Made by a program: the position numbers and the translations under genes. Of a stretch of 64,000 bases of DNA, positions 15,356-63,103 are shown piece by piece (positions within the stretch are counted from its first letter, which is position 1; every line of letters begins with the position of its first letter). This DNA is from Minisyncoccia bacterium (lineage in GTDB: Bacteria > Patescibacteriota > Minisyncoccia > Phycocordibacterales > GWA1-40-21), in contig JBAQFI010000004.1 in NCBI GenBank assembly GCA_049287185.1, forward strand, positions 8,125 to 72,124, read 5' to 3'. The notes beneath the pieces are model-generated. The model did no database searches, had not been told where the DNA came from, and saw only the letters and a list, made by a program, of their open reading frames with translations.

Positions 15356-16036
15356 ATGGATAAAAGTGTAAAAGAAATAAATATTGAATCGGAGTGGAAG
15401 GAATCACTCCAAGATTATTTCAATTCTGTAAAATTTAAAGAATTGGCGGATTTTGTGCGAAAAGAATACAAAACAAAAAAAGTTTTTCCCAAACCACAAG
15501 ATATTTTTAATGCTTTTTCGTTAACACCTTTTTCTCAAGTAAAGGTAGTAATTTTGGGACAGGATCCATATCATGATGATGGTCAGGCTCACGGGCTTTG
15601 TTTTTCGGTTCCAACTGGTGAGAATCCACCACCATCTCTTAAAAATATCTATAAAGAAATTGAAAATGATCTGGGAATTAAAAAAGATTTTACCAATGGA
15701 AATTTAGAAGCTTGGGCCAGACAAGGTGTTTTTCTTTTAAATGCCATTTTAAGTGTTGTAGCTCACACTCCTGCTTCCCATCGGGGTAAAGGTTGGGAAG
15801 AATTTACTGACACGGTTGTCAAAACTCTCTCCGATAAACATGAAAATATTGTTTTTATGCTCTGGGGTAATTATGCCCGTAGTAAGAAAAATTTAATTGA
15901 TTCTAGTAAACATTTGATATTGGAGGCACCACACCCGTCACCATTTTCCGCACATTCTGGATTTTTCGGTTGCAAACATTTTTCGAAGGTTAATAAGTAT
16001 TTGAAAGAGCATAGGAAGAAAGAGGTTGAATGGTAA
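15356..16036 (+). CDS. ung: uracil-DNA glycosylase (family 1)
   Basis: Water-activating loop ILGQDPYH, GLCFSV, LLNAILSV, and HPSPFSAHSGFFGC (the HPSPLS leucine-loop motif). Confidence 0.9.
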   Translation: MDKSVKEINIESEWKESLQDYFNSVKFKELADFVRKEYKTKKVFPKPQDIFNAFSLTPFSQVKVVILGQDPYHDDGQAHGLCFSVPTGENPPPSLKNIYKEIENDLGIKKDFTNGNLEAWARQGVFLLNAILSVVAHTPASHRGKGWEEFTDTVVKTLSDKHENIVFMLWGNYARSKKNLIDSSKHLILEAPHPSPFSAHSGFFGCKHFSKVNKYLKEHRKKEVEW

Positions 16037-16048
16037 ATAGTATTTTTT

Positions 16049-16130
16049 CTGTCATTCCCGCGCAGGCGGGAATCCAGGATTAATTGCAATATTTAGAAGA
16101 TCTGGATTCCCGCCTGCGCGGGAATGACAG
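16049..16130. repeat. REP-like element: perfect 29-bp inverted duplication of the family A palindrome
   Basis: ctgtcattcccgcgcaggcgggaatccag (16049-16077) is the exact reverse complement of ctggattcccgcctgcgcgggaatgacag (16102-16130). Each arm is itself palindromic around cccgc-NNNN-gcggg. Confidence 0.8.
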
Positions 16131-16174
16131 AAAGTTATATTTCTAGCTTTTGAGTCATTTTTGATATATATTTA

Positions 16175-17842
16175 ATGATAATTATGAAAGATGCCAAATT
16201 AATTGCTGCCAAACTTTTTCCTGAGGTCAAATTAACAATAGAGGAAATCGAAAAAAAATATCCACCTAGAAATCTGCCAGCAGGTGCTATGGTGACTCGC
16301 CTCGGACCTAGCCCAACCGGTTTTATGCATATTGGTCATCTAGCCTCTGCCCTTGCTGATTATCGTCTAGCCAAACAAACTAATGGTGTTTTTTACTTGC
16401 GTATTGAAGATACAGATCAGAAACGTGAAATAGAAGGGGCCAGCAAAGTCATCATTGATTCTCTAACCCGTTATGATCTTTTGCCGGATGAAGGCGAAAC
16501 AAAAGTCGGGGAGGAGATCGGTGCTTATGGTTCATATAAACAAAGTAAGCGTTTAGATTATTATCATACTTATACAAAATGGCTGGTGGAGAATAATTTA
16601 GCTTACCCATGTTTTTTAACTAGTGAGGAATTAGAAAAAATACATGAGTCACAGGAACAGGCAAAAATTCGACCCGGTTACCGTGGTGAATGGGCAATTT
16701 GGCGTGATAAAGAAGATGAAGAAATTTTATCCGAACTTGATGCCAAGACACCTTTTGTCATTCGTTTTCGCTCCAATGGTAATTTTGAAAATAAAATAAA
16801 AGTTACCGATATGATTCGTGGTGAGCGTGAATTGTCAGAAAACGATTTAGATTTGGTTTTACTAAAGTCTGATGGCTATCCAACCTACCATTTAGCTCAT
16901 GTCATTGATGATCATCTAATGAAGACCACTCACGTTTTGCGTGGTGATGAATGGTTGTCATCTCTACCAATTCATTTACAATTATTTAAAGCTTTTGGTT
17001 GGTCTGCTCCGGAATATGGACATCTTTCACCGATGCAAAAAATTGATGAAGGTGGAAGCCGTCGCAAAATCAGTAAACGTAAAGATCCAGAGGCTAACGT
17101 TCAGTTTTATAGTGACGCAGGATACCCACCAGTCGCAATGATTGAATATCTTCTAAATTTATACAATTCAAACTTTGAAGATTGGCGTAAAGCAAATCCA
17201 ACCACTCCCAATTCAGAATTTAAATTAGACGTTAAAAAATTTAGTTTAAGTGGAGCCTTGTTTGACGAAAATAAATTGTTAGATATTAGTAAAAATATAA
17301 TTGCTAGTATGGAAGCCAACGCTGTTAATCATAGTGCCTGGCGCTGGGCGACCATGCATGATCCGGATTTTGCCAAGCTACTTTCTAGAGACATTGAATA
17401 TACCCAAGCCATCTTTGGTATTGAACGTGGCGGACCCACTGGTCGGAAGGATATCGGAAAATGGTCGGACGTAAAAAAAGAAGTTGGTTATTTTTTCGAT
17501 GAACTTTTCTGTTTAAACCCCGAAGATGCTAAAAAAATACTGGGTGATTTTGACTGGGAGACAGTTAAAGAAGCTGGTAAAAAATTAATTGAGGATTACA
17601 ACGAGAATGATATAAAAGATGTTTGGTTTGATCATATTAAGAAGATTGCTGATAGTCTAGGTTATGCTTCAAGCGCCAAGGAATTTAAAAATGATCCAAG
17701 TAAATATAAAGGACAAGTCGGTGATGTAGCGAGAATCTACAGGGTTCTACTAACTGGTAGGACGATTTCACCAGATTTGCATCAGGTGATGAAAGTTTTG
17801 GGGAAGGAGAGAGTAGTTAGAAGACTAAAAAACTTTTTTTAA
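16175..17842 (+). CDS. gltX: glutamate--tRNA ligase
   Basis: Class I aaRS HIGH motif (PSPTGFMHIGHLASAL) and KMSKS-type KISKRK. Glu/Gln-family catalytic core. Confidence 0.85.
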   Translation: MIIMKDAKLIAAKLFPEVKLTIEEIEKKYPPRNLPAGAMVTRLGPSPTGFMHIGHLASALADYRLAKQTNGVFYLRIEDTDQKREIEGASKVIIDSLTRYDLLPDEGETKVGEEIGAYGSYKQSKRLDYYHTYTKWLVENNLAYPCFLTSEELEKIHESQEQAKIRPGYRGEWAIWRDKEDEEILSELDAKTPFVIRFRSNGNFENKIKVTDMIRGERELSENDLDLVLLKSDGYPTYHLAHVIDDHLMKTTHVLRGDEWLSSLPIHLQLFKAFGWSAPEYGHLSPMQKIDEGGSRRKISKRKDPEANVQFYSDAGYPPVAMIEYLLNLYNSNFEDWRKANPTTPNSEFKLDVKKFSLSGALFDENKLLDISKNIIASMEANAVNHSAWRWATMHDPDFAKLLSRDIEYTQAIFGIERGGPTGRKDIGKWSDVKKEVGYFFDELFCLNPEDAKKILGDFDWETVKEAGKKLIEDYNENDIKDVWFDHIKKIADSLGYASSAKEFKNDPSKYKGQVGDVARIYRVLLTGRTISPDLHQVMKVLGKERVVRRLKNFF

Positions 17843-23760: not shown

Positions 23761-24822
23761 ATGGATTACAAAGCTGAATTAGATGATTTAATAATAACAA
23801 CCATTAAAGAGGGAGCATCAGACCTCCATCTTTCTGAAGGTCGTCACCCGACTATTCGTGTGGCTGGAGTTTTGTTACCTCTAATTCGCAAACCAGTTTT
23901 AACCAAAAAAGATACTTTGGCCATTACTGAACACCTCTTATCCAAAGAAAATATAGAGAAATTTTTAGCTGAAAAAGAAATAGACTTTTCCTACGGAGTC
24001 GAAGGTGGTGATCGCTTTCGTGGTAATGGTTTTTTCCAACAAGGAGCTGTCAGTTTTGCTCTCCGTCTTATTCCTAAAAAAATTCGTAATTTAGAGGAAC
24101 TAAATCTCCCTAAAATTCTAGAGACTTTTGCTGAAAAACAACAAGGTTTCTTTTTGGTAGTGGGACCAGTTGGACACGGTAAATCCACTACATTAGCGGC
24201 TATGATTGATTATATAAATATCAATCGAGTGGAACATATTATTACTGTTGAAGATCCAATAGAATATATTTATGAACAGAAACGCTCAATCATTGATCAG
24301 CGTGAGGTAAGATTAGACACTAAAGATTTCAACGGCGCCTTGGTTAGTATGTTCCGCGAAGATGTCAATGTTGTCCTCGTGGGTGAAATGCGAGATACCG
24401 CTACTATTTCAACCGCTGTAACGGCCGCTGAAACTGGACACTTGGTTCTTTCTACTCTCCACACCAATAATGCCGCTCAAACTATTAGTCGTATTATTGA
24501 CTCCTTTCCAGCTGGACAACAAGATCAGATTCGTTTACAGCTAGCCGGAAGCTTAACAGGTATTTTCTCTCAACGCTTGATTCCACGCATTTCCGGTGGT
24601 CTCATTCCTGCTTATGAACTTTTGATAAATAACAGTGCTATCGCTAACCTAATTAGAGAAAATCGTATTCATGAAATTAACTCTGTTATCGAAACTGGTT
24701 CTGTTGATGGTATGGTGGATTTGAATCATTCCTTAGCTGATTTAGTGAACCGTGGTGAAATTACAGCTGAAACTGCTTATCAATATTCACTGAACGCAAA
24801 AATTTTAGACCGTTTGATTTAA
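23761..24822 (+). CDS. pilT: twitching motility retraction ATPase PilT
   Basis: Walker A GPVGHGKSTTLAAM, ITVEDPIEY, His box GHLVLSTLHTNNAAQTISRIID, PilT-specific AIANLIRE motif. Confidence 0.9.
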   Translation: MDYKAELDDLIITTIKEGASDLHLSEGRHPTIRVAGVLLPLIRKPVLTKKDTLAITEHLLSKENIEKFLAEKEIDFSYGVEGGDRFRGNGFFQQGAVSFALRLIPKKIRNLEELNLPKILETFAEKQQGFFLVVGPVGHGKSTTLAAMIDYININRVEHIITVEDPIEYIYEQKRSIIDQREVRLDTKDFNGALVSMFREDVNVVLVGEMRDTATISTAVTAAETGHLVLSTLHTNNAAQTISRIIDSFPAGQQDQIRLQLAGSLTGIFSQRLIPRISGGLIPAYELLINNSAIANLIRENRIHEINSVIETGSVDGMVDLNHSLADLVNRGEITAETAYQYSLNAKILDRLI

Positions 24823-26113: not shown

Positions 26114-26147
26114 TACCTTTTTTCTGTCATTCCCGCCTGCGCGGGAA
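26114..26147. repeat. REP-like palindrome (family A)
   Basis: tgtcattcccgc-ctgc-gcgggaatgaca: perfect 12-bp stem, same core as 16049-16130. Confidence 0.8.
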
Positions 26148-26391
26148 TGACAAACAGGGAACAATGTAACTCAAGGCAATATATTGGTATTTCTCCATTT
26201 ATCCACACTTTGTCTTGAATATTTTTATTTTAGTTGTGGTATAATTATTTCACTGACTAATACCCCAAGAGGGTGGCTGGTCGATCCGGTTTTCCGGCAG
26301 TCATAGTCAAGGAAAATTTGCTAGCTTCTCCAAGCTAGACAAAAGTTTTTTAATTAAAAAATTTTTAACAATTAATCGTTCTCTAATTTCA

Positions 26392-26827: not shown

Positions 26828-26839
26828 TTTTACACTTTA

Positions 26840-27389: not shown

Positions 27390-28190
27390 ATGTTTGATTT
27401 TCTTTGGTCAATTTTTGTTTTCGGTCTAGGCGCCATTATTGGTAGTTTTCTTAATGTGGTAATTTTTCGTTATCAAACCGGTATGTCTATGGTTAAAGGT
27501 CAGTCAGTTTGTCTGTCCTGCACTAAAACCTTAACCTGGTTAGAGCTAGTGCCTATTTTTAGCTTCTTGGCCCAAAAGGGGAGATGCCGTAGTTGTCTGT
27601 CCAAAATTTCTTGGCAATATCCAGCGGTAGAATTTACCACCGCTTGTATTTTCTTGGCCACTTTTTGGCATTTAGGCGGTTTGCAAGCTCCTATTCTTGA
27701 ATTAGTTTTAACTCTCATCATTTTCTGTTTACTAATTGTTATTGCTGTTTATGATCTTAGACACAAAATTATTCCTGACACTTGGTCCTATTCTCTAGCG
27801 GTTTTAGCTTTTATTTTAACTCCCGGTTTATTGTATTTTAATACAGGGAATAATCTTCCTTGGTATGAATGGATTTCCGGTCTTTTGGTAGCTTCACCGT
27901 TTGCTTTTCTGTTTCTTATTTCCCGTGGTCATTGGATGGGCTTTGGGGATGCTAAATTAGCCCTGGGCATTGGTTGGTTTTTAGGTCTATCACTTGGCAT
28001 TTCAGCGATTATTTGGGGTTTTTGGATTGGCGCCGCTTACGGTCTAACTATTATGGCTATCGGATTGAAATATAAGGGTAAAAAGATTACAATTAAGAGT
28101 GAAATACCCTTTGCACCATTTCTTATTATTGGTTGGTTACTGGTTTATTTTGTCGGTTTAGATTTAATCCATTTAAATACCCTATTGTAA
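27390..28190 (+). CDS. pilD: prepilin peptidase (A24 family) PilD
   Basis: N-terminal Cys-pair zinc motif (CLSCTKTL...CRSCLSKI), 7-8 TM, catalytic Asp pair context (AVYDLRHKIIPD...GFGDAKLA). Confidence 0.85.
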   Translation: MFDFLWSIFVFGLGAIIGSFLNVVIFRYQTGMSMVKGQSVCLSCTKTLTWLELVPIFSFLAQKGRCRSCLSKISWQYPAVEFTTACIFLATFWHLGGLQAPILELVLTLIIFCLLIVIAVYDLRHKIIPDTWSYSLAVLAFILTPGLLYFNTGNNLPWYEWISGLLVASPFAFLFLISRGHWMGFGDAKLALGIGWFLGLSLGISAIIWGFWIGAAYGLTIMAIGLKYKGKKITIKSEIPFAPFLIIGWLLVYFVGLDLIHLNTLL

Positions 28191-28242
28191 ATTATGTTAA
28201 AGTTTTTTCAAAATTTTAAAAATAAATTCTCATCATCCTGCT

Positions 28243-28335
28243 CGTCATTGCGAGGGTGTACTCACCCGTGGCAATCCAGGATTTTTTTGAATAATAAGAT
28301 GGATTGCCACGTCGGCAGACCTCCTCGCAATGACG
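28243..28335. repeat. REP-like nested inverted repeat (family B) overlapping the start of a minor pilin gene
   Basis: Outer arms cgtcattgcgagg / cctcgcaatgacg; inner arms gtggcaatcc / ggattgccac; central AT-rich spacer. gtcatt...aatgac ends resemble family A. Confidence 0.7.
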
Positions 28336-28922
28336 GAAAGAGAGGTTTTACTTTGATTGAACTCTTGGTCACCCTATCTATTTTTGTGATTGTTGGTAGC
28401 GTAATTCTTTTTAGTCAAAGTCAGTTTAATGGTTCTATTTTACTTTCCAATTTATCTTACGATTTAGCTCTCACTATTCGCCAAGCACAAACTTTTGGAG
28501 TCGGGGGTAAGTCCTTTGGTTTTGATGATACACAAAAACCGAGGTACGGTGTCCATCTAGATACCACAAACAGTAAAAGTATTGTTTTTTTTGCTGATTT
28601 AGATGGGGGAGGAACCTATGACGTTGGTATTTGTCCTAAATCTACCATAGATGACAACCTCGAATGTTTAGAGACTTATAATATTAAAAAAGGAAACAGT
28701 ATAAAAAAAATCTGTGAATATCAGGGAGAAAATACGTCCTGTACAGATTCTTATAGTTCAGTAGATATTACTTTTGAACGACCTGATCCCGATGCTGTTA
28801 TATATGTTGAGAAAACAAAAGCAGATTTTTCTGCTGTGGAGATTGTTATTGGTGATGATTCAGATTCCCAAACTCGTTCTGTGGTTGTTACTTCAGTCGG
28901 CCAGATTTTCATTAAAAAATAA
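28299..28922 (+). CDS. minor pilin / pseudopilin (start revised to the ATG inside the repeat; the track ORF starts at 28194)
   Basis: Leader MDCHVGRPPRNDGKRG|FTLIELLVTLSIFVIVGSV. The upstream extension from 28194 runs through the REP-like element and lacks pilin features. Confidence 0.7.
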   Translation: MDCHVGRPPRNDGKRGFTLIELLVTLSIFVIVGSVILFSQSQFNGSILLSNLSYDLALTIRQAQTFGVGGKSFGFDDTQKPRYGVHLDTTNSKSIVFFADLDGGGTYDVGICPKSTIDDNLECLETYNIKKGNSIKKICEYQGENTSCTDSYSSVDITFERPDPDAVIYVEKTKADFSAVEIVIGDDSDSQTRSVVVTSVGQIFIKK

Positions 28923-56757: not shown

Positions 56758-56777
56758 TATTGTTTATCCGATTAAAT

Positions 56778-56911
56778 CGACAATCCTGATTGTCGTCCCC
56801 GCGTAGGCAGGGCTCCAGTCAGTTTGTCTTCTTTTTTTCGGGTTGATTATCTATTAATATTTTTTAAGATTGGATCGTCTCCTGTGCGGGGACGATAATT
56901 AGAATTGTCGA
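56778..56911. repeat. pair of REP-like two-hairpin modules in opposite order flanking a 63-bp AT-rich spacer
   Basis: 56778-56813 cgacaat-cctg-attgtcg + tccccgcgtaggcaggg. 56877-56911 cgtctcc-tgtgc-ggggacg + ataatt-ag-aattgtcg. Same module as 6270-6305. The second copy abuts the stop codon of the SBP gene. Confidence 0.6.
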
Positions 56912-58666
56912 TTATTTTATTAAAATTTTCCAAACATTTTCAGTTTCCACATACCACTTACTAACATCAAGAAAGCGTTCAGAAGGAGTCGTCATCGTAG
57001 TCATATAAAAGTTTTTTAATTTTGTCGGAGTAACATATAAATATTTATGTGAGTAAGCAAAGATGGCCGGCAGATCTTTTTTGATTTCTTTTTCGAACTG
57101 CAAATATTTCTCGGCTTTTTTGGCTTTGTCGTCTAGTTTTCGAGAATCCTCCAAAATTTTATCTACATTTTTATTAGCAAATCCTGAAAGATTTAAACCT
57201 GATCCTGTGCGCTGTGAGGAATGCCAATAACCATAAAAATCTAAATCCCTACCGATAACTTCACCCAAAAGTAAAACATCATATTTTCTGGTGCGAATAA
57301 TGTTTTGGTTTAAATCGCCAATTTCAAAGAATTTTAAATCAACGCTAGCTCCCAGTGCCTCCCAGTTCTCCTTGGCAATATTTGCAGTAACGCGTAATTC
57401 TGGAGTATCAAGAGTCGTGATAGTAAAACTGAATTGTGTAGTTTGCTTACCGACTTTTTTTTCTAAAATTCCGCCCTTATTTAGTTTCCAACCAGCGGTT
57501 GATAATTTTTTTATAATCTCAGTACTAGACGCAGTAGCTACATTTCCTCCACCATTATAAAAGTTCAAGGGTAATAGGGCATTTGGAATAGGACTTTCCA
57601 AAACATCACCATATCCGGCTAGAGCCTCGGTAACTATTCGGCTACGGTCAAGGGAGTCATTCAAAGCCGTGCGTATTTCCGGACTAGTAAATAATTGATT
57701 CTGACTTTGGTTTAGGAAAAAACCATAGATGTGGGTTAGAGGCACTCCCTTAATCTCAAGTTTTTTATCTTTACTTAAAATATTTAAATTATCTGGTGAT
57801 AATCCGCCGGCACTCTCAATCAGGCCAGATTTTATTTCCTCAAAAAGTTTTGCCTCACTAGGATAAAAATGAACATAGAAATTCTTTATATAAGCTTCAC
57901 CCTGAGTGTAATTGTCAAAAGGAACCAAAGCATAATAAGAAATTATACCAGAAGCGTCACGAGTTAGACTTCCAATTTTATATGGTCCAGAACCAACCGG
58001 TTCAGTATTGTAAATACTAAAAGGAAAATTCTCTGCATTCAGATCTTTCCATAGATGTTTTGGTAAAATACCTATGGTTAGATTACTTAAAAATGGGGGA
58101 TATGGTTGAGGTAAGATGAATTCAATCTGTCTATCGTCAACAATATTTACTTTAATATTTTTCCAATTGGCCATTTTAGGACTCTTAATAGTTGGGTCCA
58201 AGACTTTATCAATCGTAAATTTAAGGTCATCAGTAGTTATTTTTACTCCATCATGAAAAATTAAATCTGGTTTTAAAGTAAAAGTATAAGTTAAACCGTC
58301 ATCAGAAACAGTATAATTTTCTGCCAAATCATTTATTAGGTCACCATCAGCGGTATATTTAAGTAATCCAGAGTAAATAAGAGTAGTCATGTCACGGTCG
58401 GCATCAGAGATGGCAATAATCGGATTAATGTAGCGTGGTGTACCAACAATACCTTCATGTAGTGAACCACTATAATTTGGTACTTCAACCATCAAAGCTT
58501 CATTAGCACTTTTTAATATATTTAAACCAGAAAAAACAAAAATAAAAATTAAACTATAAAAAATAATTTTTTCGGTTAAGTGCAAATGTTTAAAAACCTC
58601 AGAGATTTCTTCTAGTTTTTTGATTGTCCATCTTTTTTTAAAAGCTTGCGAGACTATTTCTTTCAC
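56912..58666 (-). CDS. ABC transporter substrate-binding protein, family 5 (peptide/oligopeptide type)
   Basis: N-terminal signal anchor, ~550-aa SBP_bac_5-like architecture. Confidence 0.5.
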   Translation of the reverse strand: MKEIVSQAFKKRWTIKKLEEISEVFKHLHLTEKIIFYSLIFIFVFSGLNILKSANEALMVEVPNYSGSLHEGIVGTPRYINPIIAISDADRDMTTLIYSGLLKYTADGDLINDLAENYTVSDDGLTYTFTLKPDLIFHDGVKITTDDLKFTIDKVLDPTIKSPKMANWKNIKVNIVDDRQIEFILPQPYPPFLSNLTIGILPKHLWKDLNAENFPFSIYNTEPVGSGPYKIGSLTRDASGIISYYALVPFDNYTQGEAYIKNFYVHFYPSEAKLFEEIKSGLIESAGGLSPDNLNILSKDKKLEIKGVPLTHIYGFFLNQSQNQLFTSPEIRTALNDSLDRSRIVTEALAGYGDVLESPIPNALLPLNFYNGGGNVATASSTEIIKKLSTAGWKLNKGGILEKKVGKQTTQFSFTITTLDTPELRVTANIAKENWEALGASVDLKFFEIGDLNQNIIRTRKYDVLLLGEVIGRDLDFYGYWHSSQRTGSGLNLSGFANKNVDKILEDSRKLDDKAKKAEKYLQFEKEIKKDLPAIFAYSHKYLYVTPTKLKNFYMTTMTTPSERFLDVSKWYVETENVWKILIK

Positions 58667-62210: not shown

Positions 62211-62286
62211 TGTCATTACTACGCAGACAGGAATGACAACGGGCCACGCATCGTGAGGCAAGGCCTCACGATGAGTTGCCTCACGA
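62211..62286. repeat. REP cluster upstream of the transposase: family A-like inverted repeat + family C 25-nt palindrome + extra half-site
   Basis: ctgtcatt...aatgaca (62211-62240). catcgtgaggc-aag-gcctcacgatg (62249-62273). gcctcacgatg again at 62276-62286. Confidence 0.7.
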
Positions 62287-62311
62287 TGTAGAAAAAGATA
62301 ATATTATTCAC

Positions 62312-62977
62312 ATGTCTGCCAGATCAAAAAAATTTGTCTCAGGTGAGTTCTATCACATTTATAACAGAGGAAACAGTAAACAGAAAATTTTTCATGATGA
62401 GGAAGATTATCAGAGGTTTACTTCTTTACTCTTTCTGTCAAATAAGATGAAAAAATTCGATATTTTCGATCTTCGAAAATATAAAAATAAAAATACATAC
62501 AAGCATGAAAACAATAAGCCGATTGTAAGTATTGGATCGTACTGTCTAATGCCAAATCATTTTCATATTCTGATTACTCAAGCTGAAAGTGAAGAGAATG
62601 GTATCAGTAAATTCATGCATAAATTGGGCACTGCCTATTCAATGTATTATAATAAAAAATATAAGAGAACGGGTGGATTATTCGAAGGTAAATTTAAATC
62701 GCAGTATATTGAGACAGATCGACACCTAAAATATTTATTCTCATATATTCATTTAAACCCGATAAAACTTATTCAAAAAGATTGGAAAGAAAAGGGAATT
62801 GTAAATAGGAAGGAAGCTATTAGTTACCTAAATAACTACTTATTTTCAAGCTATATAGATTTTATGGGGGAAAAAAGGTTTGAAAATGAAATCATAGACA
62901 CCTGGGCGTTTCCAAAATATTTTCCTAAAAAAGAATCATTTATTAAAGAGACTTTAAATTGGTTAAGTTATAAATAG
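62312..62977 (+). CDS. IS200/IS605-family Y1 (HUH) transposase, REP-associated tyrosine transposase (RAYT)-like
   Basis: From ATG MSARSKKFVSGEFYHIYNRGN. HUH motif CLMPNHFHILI, catalytic Tyr helix YLFSYIHLNPIK, GGLFEGKFKS. The track's TTG start at 62276 lies inside the palindrome. Confidence 0.75.
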   Translation: MSARSKKFVSGEFYHIYNRGNSKQKIFHDEEDYQRFTSLLFLSNKMKKFDIFDLRKYKNKNTYKHENNKPIVSIGSYCLMPNHFHILITQAESEENGISKFMHKLGTAYSMYYNKKYKRTGGLFEGKFKSQYIETDRHLKYLFSYIHLNPIKLIQKDWKEKGIVNRKEAISYLNNYLFSSYIDFMGEKRFENEIIDTWAFPKYFPKKESFIKETLNWLSYK

Positions 62978-63005
62978 TTTACTAGATTTTTATAGTTGTT
63001 TAAAA

Positions 63006-63030
63006 CATCGTGAGGCAAGGCCTCACGATG
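63006..63030. repeat. family C palindrome, identical copy downstream of the transposase
   Basis: catcgtgaggcaaggcctcacgatg, identical to 62249-62273. Confidence 0.8.
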
Positions 63031-63103
63031 TTTTAAATTTAACGATATATTGCTTAATTTTGATTGATAATTAAACCATTGATTGGTATAATAATCAGTA
63101 ATA

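Follow-up and report, generated by a model that had tools for sequence, protein, structure and literature searches.

A stretch of 64,000 nucleotides from a metagenome-assembled genome (MAG) of a Minisyncoccia bacterium (Patescibacteria; contig JBAQFI010000004.1, positions 8,125 to 72,124), hereafter the window, carries a type IV pilus operon in which the minor pilin gene that follows the prepilin peptidase gene pilD contains a hairpin-forming nested inverted repeat of about 95 bases (28243-28335). We consider it probable, at roughly 0.65, that this element is a paired repeat related to the Neisseria Transformation Sequence (NTS) and its generalised form, the Ssn-related motif (SRM), that it lies in frame in the cleaved pilin leader, and that it is read through from an ATG at 28194 as a tolerated passenger. 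The element forms a strong hairpin, has the units and the paired architecture of a widespread repeat family and leaves the reading frame open. Ortholog leaders match the sequence ahead of it, and a repeat at the same site of a syntenic locus is necessarily translated.

An in-frame hairpin repeat in a pilin leader

The outer arms of the element (CGTCATTGCGAGG) are exact at 28243-28255 on the plus strand and at 28323-28335 on the minus strand. Allowing up to two mismatches, this string has three matches in the window where 0.46 are expected, and three or more were seen in none of 100 shuffles. The inner arms (GTGGCAATCC) occupy 28268-28277 and 28301-28310; the initial annotation gave them as 10-nt strings, which are indeed present, but the perfect inner stem extends to 12 nt. 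An inverted-repeat search returned arms of 36 nt (28243-28278 and 28300-28335) with 78% complementarity, separated by an AT-rich spacer of 21 nt. As RNA the element folds to -51.7 kcal/mol, compared with -33.0 +/- 3.4 kcal/mol for shuffled versions (z = -5.55, equalled by 0 of 200), and as single-stranded DNA (ssDNA) its two strands reach -28.7 and -29.0 kcal/mol (z = -7.2 and -8.4). The nested inverted repeat is real and lies far beyond chance, and sequence, fold and shuffles alike bear out the arms and AT-rich spacer first described from the letters.

The element consists of two inverted palindromic units that combine into one long hairpin, as in the layout of repetitive extragenic palindromes (REPs) and their paired form, the REPINs. 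The left unit fits the pattern GTCATTGCGAG..GCAATCC of the family described below and folds on its own as ssDNA (-7.9 kcal/mol, z = -3.05). The right unit has a weak inner hairpin (-4.1 kcal/mol, z = 0.01), and arms of such unequal kind are typical for the ATTGCGAG-type family. The spacer is similar to GATTAATTGCAATATTTAGAAGAT, the spacer of a related element at 16046. Despite 13-bp perfect termini, no target-site duplication accompanies the element, as the flanks ...CATCCTGCT / element / GAAAGAGAGG contain no direct repeat, and none was found at the 16046 copy either. Rfam at gathering thresholds recovered six tRNAs in the window and no match at the element, and a terminator scan found no terminator-like site or U-tract there, the nearest being at 26839 and, on the minus strand, at 28835. 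A promoter inside the element was considered and set aside, since the 9/12 promoter-like match at 28268-28295 is at background level (22 such matches found, 17.8 expected).

The reading frame is open from ATG 28194 through the whole repeat without a stop, whereas stops are present in both other plus-strand frames across the element. The predicted product begins MLKFFQNFKNKF..., MLKFFQNFKNKFSS. ATG 28194 lies 3 nt past the pilD stop codon, in keeping with the usual 2-6 nt between genes of this operon. Because this upstream frame is open and the leaders of orthologs match it, we conclude that the repeat was inserted in frame where the leader is encoded. Judged from the sequence, ATG 28194 is most likely both the ancestral start and the start in use. 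The initial annotation had taken ATG 28299 to be the only plausible start, which can no longer be maintained, and had considered a start further downstream as the alternative; the gene most likely starts further upstream. Its statement that the leader is partly encoded by the repeat stands, as the element lies within the leader-coding frame.

The NCBI annotation starts the gene at ATG 28299 (P0001, 207 aa, leader MDCHVGRPPRNDGKRG). This codon is a by-product of the element, because it is made by the junction of spacer and arm and has no counterpart in the 16046 copy, which reads AAGATCTGGATT at the same junction and contains no ATG there. The NCBI start is thus probably an artefact of the repeat. 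It had been proposed that the insertion recruited a new start; the element does supply the internal ATG that NCBI uses, and the remainder of that proposal was not upheld. No ATG, GTG or TTG occurs between ATG 28299 and the G-1 codon, and a downstream non-ATG start was rejected, as the sole in-frame start codon past 28299 is TTG 28353 within the mature FTL. ATG 28299 and the loop codon TTG 28287 are possible secondary starts.

The encoded protein has the features of a class III signal peptide, namely a basic leader that ends in G and is followed by a hydrophobic helix (KRG/FTLIELLVTLSIFVIVGSV), with F(+1) and E(+5), and an adjoining A24 peptidase gene upstream. Its N_methyl motif (PF07963) spans residues 49-71 (E=1.4e-7), and some of its homologs are labelled FimT or GspH in their sources. 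We propose that the element was inserted in frame into the leader-coding part of this FimT/GspH-like gene and that translation begins at the ancestral ATG 28194, probably coupled to pilD. Ribosomes would read through the repeat and produce a 51-residue leader. The prepilin peptidase would then cut at KRG/FTLIELL, leaving the mature pilin unchanged, so that the insertion would be tolerated. The leader-coding stretch may be a rare place in a packed operon where about 100 extra in-frame bases can persist harmlessly.

To compare orthologs, a homolog search was made and the N-termini of 119 proteins (P0001-P0119) were inspected. P0005 (51% identity) has the leader MLKFVKKNNSKKKG without a repeat, which agrees with the earlier proposal that the repeat is an insertion. 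P0002 (48% identity) has the leader MLKFLRTKKNLFS-VILANAGIQSKRHLILDSRLHGND-RRKKG, with an SRM pair at the same leader position; its insert reads VILANAGIQ...LDSRLHGND ahead of RRKKG. The N-terminus of the window leader is common to both proteins. The P0002 locus (L001) shows synteny, with a PilD of 80% identity and 5 nt between the pilD stop and the pilin ATG. Its hairpin at the same leader site has 35-nt arms (TCTGTCATCCTCGCGAATGCGGGGATCCAG, 18 nt, CTGGATTCCCGTCTGCACGGGAATGACAGA), both of which match the published SRM pattern. The initial annotation had thought of a recent insertion, which is doubtful given that the site is also filled in a relative this close. Between the ATG next to pilD and GFT, neither L001 nor a further locus, L126, has any in-frame ATG, GTG or TTG, and the repeats in both must therefore be translated.

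A more distant ortholog (P0097 in locus L125, 35% identical) likewise has a pair in its leader, of NTS type, and its open reading frame (ORF) overlaps the pilD stop. Ortholog comparison, suggested from the start as a check, thus returned one leader free of the repeat (P0005) and two that contain other hairpin repeats (L001 and L125). The pilin start adjoins the pilD stop in L001, L003, L125 and L126 as well. Just 5' of the full unit, the window and L125 each have a truncated GTCATCCT-like stub (Table 1), a hint that an older NTS-type copy may have been replaced or nested. N-terminal strings such as ..SLRG.., ..PRNDG.., ..LDSRLHGND.. and ..VILANAGIQ.. flag hairpin repeats and not genuine protein sequence.

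The type IV pilus operon comprises an ATPase gene (23761-24822, assigned by position and sequence only), pilC (assigned by position), two pilin genes, pilD, four further pilin-like genes and ligA. Genes 3' of pilD are spaced by 2-6 nt, and pilin2 alone among these operon genes has a Shine-Dalgarno sequence. The initial annotation credited all the other pilins with short leaders, a generalisation that did not survive: the leaders of two neighbouring pilins are 15 and 16 aa long (MSKNIKQIKTKNNRG, MKKIFIKITKNKLATG).

Table 1. Coordinates of the pilin-leader element, its gene context and related repeats in the window
Feature	Position	Strand	Description
Related element	16046..16133	.	Perfect 32-nt inverted pair of tGTCATTCCCGCGCAGGCGGGAATCCAG, 100% complementary, 24-nt spacer
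Solo hairpin	26124..26152	.	TGTCATTCCCGCCTGCGCGGGAATGACA, between pilC and first pilin gene; GTCATT...AATGAC at 26126-26151
Prepilin peptidase PilD	27390..28190	+	Pfam A24_N_bact E=1.6e-29, Peptidase_A24 E=4.7e-13
FimT/GspH-like minor pilin, full ORF	28194..28922	+	242 aa; 51-aa leader MLKFFQNFKNKFSSSCSSLRGCTHPWQSRIFLNNKMDCHVGRPPRNDGKRG, then G/FTLIELL
Possible relic, left end of older NTS-type unit	28233..28241	+	TCATCCTGC; compare L001 TTCTCTGTCATCCTCGC, L125 CGTCATCCTGTACC; uncertain
Left repeat unit	28243..28279	+	CGTCATTGCGAG-GGTGTACTCACC-CGTGGCAATCCAG; flanks conserved, own mini-hairpin GGGTG/CACCC
AT-rich spacer / hairpin loop	28280..28298	+	GATTTTTTTGAATAATAAG; in-frame TTG 28287 inside
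Internal ATG	28299..28301	+	Spacer/right-arm junction AAGAT/GGATT, in frame with GFTLIELL
Right repeat unit	28299..28335	-	Minus-strand reading CGTCATTGCGAG-GAGGTCTGCCGA-CGTGGCAATCCAT
Prepilin cleavage motif G/FTLIEL	28344..28364	+	G-1 codon 28344-28346, F+1 at 28347, E+5

A widespread repeat family and its kinship to the Neisseria Transformation Sequence

The pattern GTCATTGCGAG-N8-30-GCAATCC, scanned with one genome per species, matched at least 120 loci in at least 15 phyla, Patescibacteria included. The view of the element as a REP-like interspersed hairpin repeat was broadly right. Hosts comprise Alpha-, Beta-, Gamma- and Deltaproteobacteria, Campylobacterota, Bacteroidota, Cyanobacteria with Melainabacteria, Chloroflexota, Firmicutes, Planctomycetota, Spirochaetota, Armatimonadota, Gemmatimonadota, Zixibacteria, Nitrospirota and Patescibacteria, and the family also occurs in Rickettsiales MAGs (L053, L077, L100). 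The unit consists of the flanks CGTCATTGCGAG and CGTGGCAATCCAG around a variable segment, and the flanks are invariant among at least 181 arms. A 27-nt short form (GTCATTGCGAGCGAAGCGAAGCAATCC) occurs beside long forms of 33-48 nt. Convergent pairs, 43 in number, account for 86 of the at least 181 arms and have modal spacers of 21-24 nt, which is the architecture of 28243-28335; divergent pairs among these matches number four.

The variable segments retain their folding. Among 111 unique arms, 98 fold better than shuffles, and 22 have perfect inner stems of at least 5 bp, compared with 2.2% of shuffles. These stems comprise 26 distinct sequences, and the inner-stem differences among arms are compensatory variation. 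Sixteen of the 43 pairs lie in long stop-free spans, an observation we discarded, as high-GC genomes give long open frames by chance. A literature text search for exact ATTGCGAG-type strings returned unrelated primer matches only.

The NTS (CGTCATTCCCGCGMAVGCGGGAATCYRG, which includes dRS3) is bound and cut in single-stranded DNA by SsnA, a GIY-YIG protein of 94 aa (PMC11893778). It has been generalised to the degenerate SRM, which occurs across phyla and flanks ssn genes (PMC11893778). The bases most critical for cleavage and binding by SsnA are GTC ahead of the palindrome and C behind it, and SsnA is reported to lose its activity when the palindrome is altered but the structure retained (PMC11893778). 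Both units of the pilin-leader element keep the critical GTC and C, as CGTC-ATTGC...GCAAT-CC, and the flanks GTCATT and AATCCAG are common to its family and the NTS consensus. The two repeat types share an oriented unit of about 28-37 nt, in which CGTCATT on the 5' side and AATCCAG on the 3' side enclose a hairpin-forming core, as well as a spread across phyla and inverted copies that often flank genes. They differ in the core, which is ATTGCGAG...GCAAT with a variable inner hairpin in the pilin element and ATTCCCGC...GCGGGAAT in the SRM, and in setting: the pilin element lies inside a coding region of a Patescibacteria (Minisyncoccia) MAG, and the window holds no ssn gene. From these likenesses, the pilin-element family appears to be a sister type of the Neisseria NTS and the SRM.

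The window also holds closer relatives of the NTS, and beside the pilin element there are three to four related copies in all. The intergenic element at 16046-16133, between the ORFs 15356-16036 and 16175-17842, matches the SRM on both strands and equals the NTS consensus save for the first base; it folds to -42.5 kcal/mol as ssDNA (z = -13). Such near-identity of its units, in a Patescibacteria MAG, to the Neisseria sequence is striking. The solo hairpin at 26124 looks like a pair that collapsed by recombination between ATTCCCGC cores. The pilus locus accordingly holds two elements of an NTS/SRM-like superfamily. A divergent inverted repeat at 56775-56913, with 46-nt arms that are 76% complementary and a GTCGTCCCCGCGTAGGCAGGGCTCCAG-like core, lies between two minus-strand ORFs and could represent a third subtype within that superfamily.

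The element may be mobilised by an Ssn-like, a REP-associated tyrosine transposase (RAYT)-like or another protein. In locus L095, two inverted units of the subtype bracket a gene for a 96-aa GIY-YIG protein (Pfam E=2.2e-13). This single locus mirrors the NTS-ssnA-NTS layout and suggests that the ATTGCGAG-type subtype is also Ssn-related. Searches of NCBIfam and PDB with the L095 protein returned nothing useful. The window encodes a RAYT-like gene of the Y1/IS200 type (ATG 62313 to 62977; Pfam Y1_Tnp E=8e-8), flanked on both sides by a CATCGTGAGGCAAGGCCTCACGATG hairpin (CATCGTGAGGC-AAG-GCCTCACGATG) at 62249-62273 and 63006-63030, and a decayed GTCATT..AATGAC solo hairpin (62212-62237) lies 10 nt further upstream. 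The region 62211-63037 has the classic layout of a RAYT with its REP, and no further copy of this REP was seen in the window. We rejected this gene as mobiliser of the pilin element, as its flanking hairpins differ.

Three known systems resemble the pilin element to varying degrees. Rickettsia palindromic elements (RPEs; Ogata et al.) are 'protein-coding palindromes' inserted in frame into ORFs (PMC10969869) and appear to be its closest analogue. Common to both is a palindromic repeat, of about 100-150 bp, that lies in frame in a gene and adds a peptide while the protein is preserved; in the window the host ORF runs open through the repeat, which the organism would translate. The pilin insert differs in that it sits in the cleaved leader and would be absent from the mature protein, and the likeness is one of architecture. 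With REP/REPIN systems and their RAYTs, the element shares two inverted palindromic units, a long hairpin, the absence of a target-site duplication and a RAYT-like gene in the window. It is, in contrast, intragenic and present as a single copy of its subtype in 64 kb, and the RAYT-like gene has another hairpin; an extragenic site, many copies and a cognate RAYT flanked by the same repeat were not found in the window. [quoted passage not shown] The pilin element has no target-site duplication or recognised transposase ends, and its arms are oriented hairpin units. It would be an NTS/SRM-like paired hairpin acting as a protein-coding palindrome.

Hairpins at the junction of pilD and the minor pilin gene

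Strong hairpins occur at this junction in seven of about 18 syntenic loci (the window, L001, L125, L126, L004, L128 and L169). They belong to at least four unrelated repeat families and fold to between -43 and -96 kcal/mol. Loci without a junction hairpin include L002, L003, L130, L132, L138, L143, L146 and L150. A scan of metagenomes with PilD brought up mainly distant relatives (27-52% identity); about 12 had kept pilD-pilin synteny, too few for dating the insertion.

Several of these loci have features of their own. In L126 (774-1445 and 3001-3215), the orthologous pilin has a 71-aa leader made up of an AGCTNNN-heptad hairpin with 39-nt arms and 14-nt CCTACCACCTACAA tandem repeats, which translate as ..LKANSYKLKA..NLPPTTYHLQP... 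A CCTAC(A/C)ACCTAC motif occurs near the 5' ends of several pilin genes in the same operon, and a Y1_Tnp gene lies within it between pilin genes. Another type of leader hairpin is found in L125 (1113-1158), L128 (3401-3536) and the proteins P0080, P0109 and P0117. Its right arm forms the last leader codons (LVSG, LVCG or MVSG), its left arm a pseudo-cleavage motif GFTxTP, and GGNTTTAC is present on both sides. We speculate that the coding sequence of the prepilin cleavage site may be the target of this element type, or may be duplicated by it. In L004, a 23-nt perfect palindrome (TCTCGAGGCGAAACCTCAAGATC/GATCTTGAGGTTTCGCCTCGAGA) with a partial third copy (1105-1151) is intergenic, lying in the 166-nt gap between pilD and the pilin gene and outside the leader.

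About one fifth of the minor-pilin homologs (P0001-P0119) have called leaders of 26-71 aa. Such lengths far exceed those of typical type IV pilin leaders. Many of these long leaders may be repeat insertions or miscalled gene starts.

Competing explanations and significance

Several observations weigh against the element as a translated passenger of NTS/SRM kin. The window and L001 elements differ in subtype and in left-end frame, and therefore a single ancestral insertion needs later replacement, or the site was hit repeatedly. A scan of the window with the SRM pattern (HGTCWYN(0-2)YYVSBRHN(0-5)WNVSBRGN(0-2)RNCYNB) matched at 16050-16077(+) and 16102-16129(-) only, and neither arm of the pilin element fits, because its core is ATTGCGAG...GCAAT. 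The exact ATTGCGAG-type subtype has a single copy in the 64 kb, and neither a regular-expression search nor tblastn with the L095 protein found a GIY-YIG or Ssn-type gene in the window. The NCBI pipeline chose 28299 as start, and both ATG 28299 and TTG 28287 are in frame and usable as starts, the latter lying in the accessible loop. A hairpin of -52 kcal/mol within a translated region could slow ribosomes, and we assume that the insertion is neutral.

The choice of start also bears on the suggestion of the initial annotation that the repeat gates translation initiation. If the gene started at ATG 28299 (or TTG 28287), the hairpin would occlude initiation until something such as temperature, or ribosomes completing pilD, melts it. 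The great stability of the RNA hairpin fits this explanation, as does an in-frame ATG that gives a 16-aa leader matching two neighbouring pilins in length and whose A, like the loop upstream, is unpaired. The RNA folding proposed as a check did reveal a strong hairpin, but within AUG 28299 both U and G are base-paired (P(unpaired) 0.02 and 0.00), the 36 nt that follow belong to the stem, and a Shine-Dalgarno sequence is lacking. Upstream, the frame is intact, contains no stop and is homologous to the leaders of orthologs, L001 reads through its repeat with no internal start, and ATG 28299 is an accident of one junction that is absent from the 16046 sister copy. Gating is therefore the less likely reading, and we regard it as unlikely. 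The hairpin might otherwise be kept for a role in the RNA at the boundary of pilD and the minor pilin gene, where it could stabilise the mRNA, be a site of processing or slow translation so that the level of minor pilin is set apart from that of the peptidase. Such a role would account for the recurrence of unrelated hairpins, from at least four families, in syntenic loci, yet the survival of insertions at a permissive site accounts for the pattern just as well. Many orthologs have no junction hairpin, those that occur share no sequence, position or size, and the element has neither a terminator-like U-tract nor an Rfam match, so that we find this role rather doubtful.

A role at the DNA level appears improbable. 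Here a gene elsewhere in the genome would encode an Ssn-type single-strand nuclease that targets the element, and the element, together with the 26124 hairpin, would label the pilus locus and influence recombination or transformation there, much as NTS clusters lie near surface-protein genes in Neisseria. The units keep the GTC and C that are critical for SsnA (PMC11893778), NTS-like copies occur at 16046, 26124 and 28243, and the subtype flanks a GIY-YIG gene in L095. The palindrome differs, however, and a changed palindrome abolishes SsnA activity (PMC11893778); moreover, the right unit hardly forms a hairpin of its own, the window has no Ssn homolog, and two elements in a locus do not make a cluster. 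A chance palindrome or an assembly artefact of the MAG is scarcely credible. Inverted repeats can misassemble and the exact subtype has one copy in the window, but the statistics lie far beyond shuffles, frame and synteny are continuous across the element, the family architecture recurs in many independent genomes, and the L001 and L125 assemblies have equivalent elements at the same site.

A bolder and doubtful extension of the passenger explanation is that the junction of pilD and the first minor pilin gene is a preferred landing site, or a selected one, for hairpin elements in Patescibacteria, and that the family is a new class of SRM. NTS/SRM pairs and at least three other families may have entered the leader repeatedly and be translated there as disposable sequence. 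They may also adjust the expression of minor pilins or flag the competence-pilus locus to an Ssn-like ssDNA nuclease. If this is true, the ATTGCGAG-type unit would be a new specificity class of SRM, found in at least 15 phyla and lying outside the published motif.

The NTS and Ssn-related hairpins described from Neisseria in 2025 are extended here to Patescibacteria and to a probable sister motif with the same flanks and a variable core. The pilin element would be a clean example of a selfish palindrome that survives in a compact operon by way of a cleaved leader, a parallel to the RPEs but at no cost to the mature protein. Leader peptides may offer shelter to elements of this kind. In these reduced bacteria, the type IV pilus locus is believed to play a central part in DNA uptake. 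Should the recurrence of hairpins at this junction exceed what survivorship explains, it would suggest that they serve regulation or recombination at this locus.

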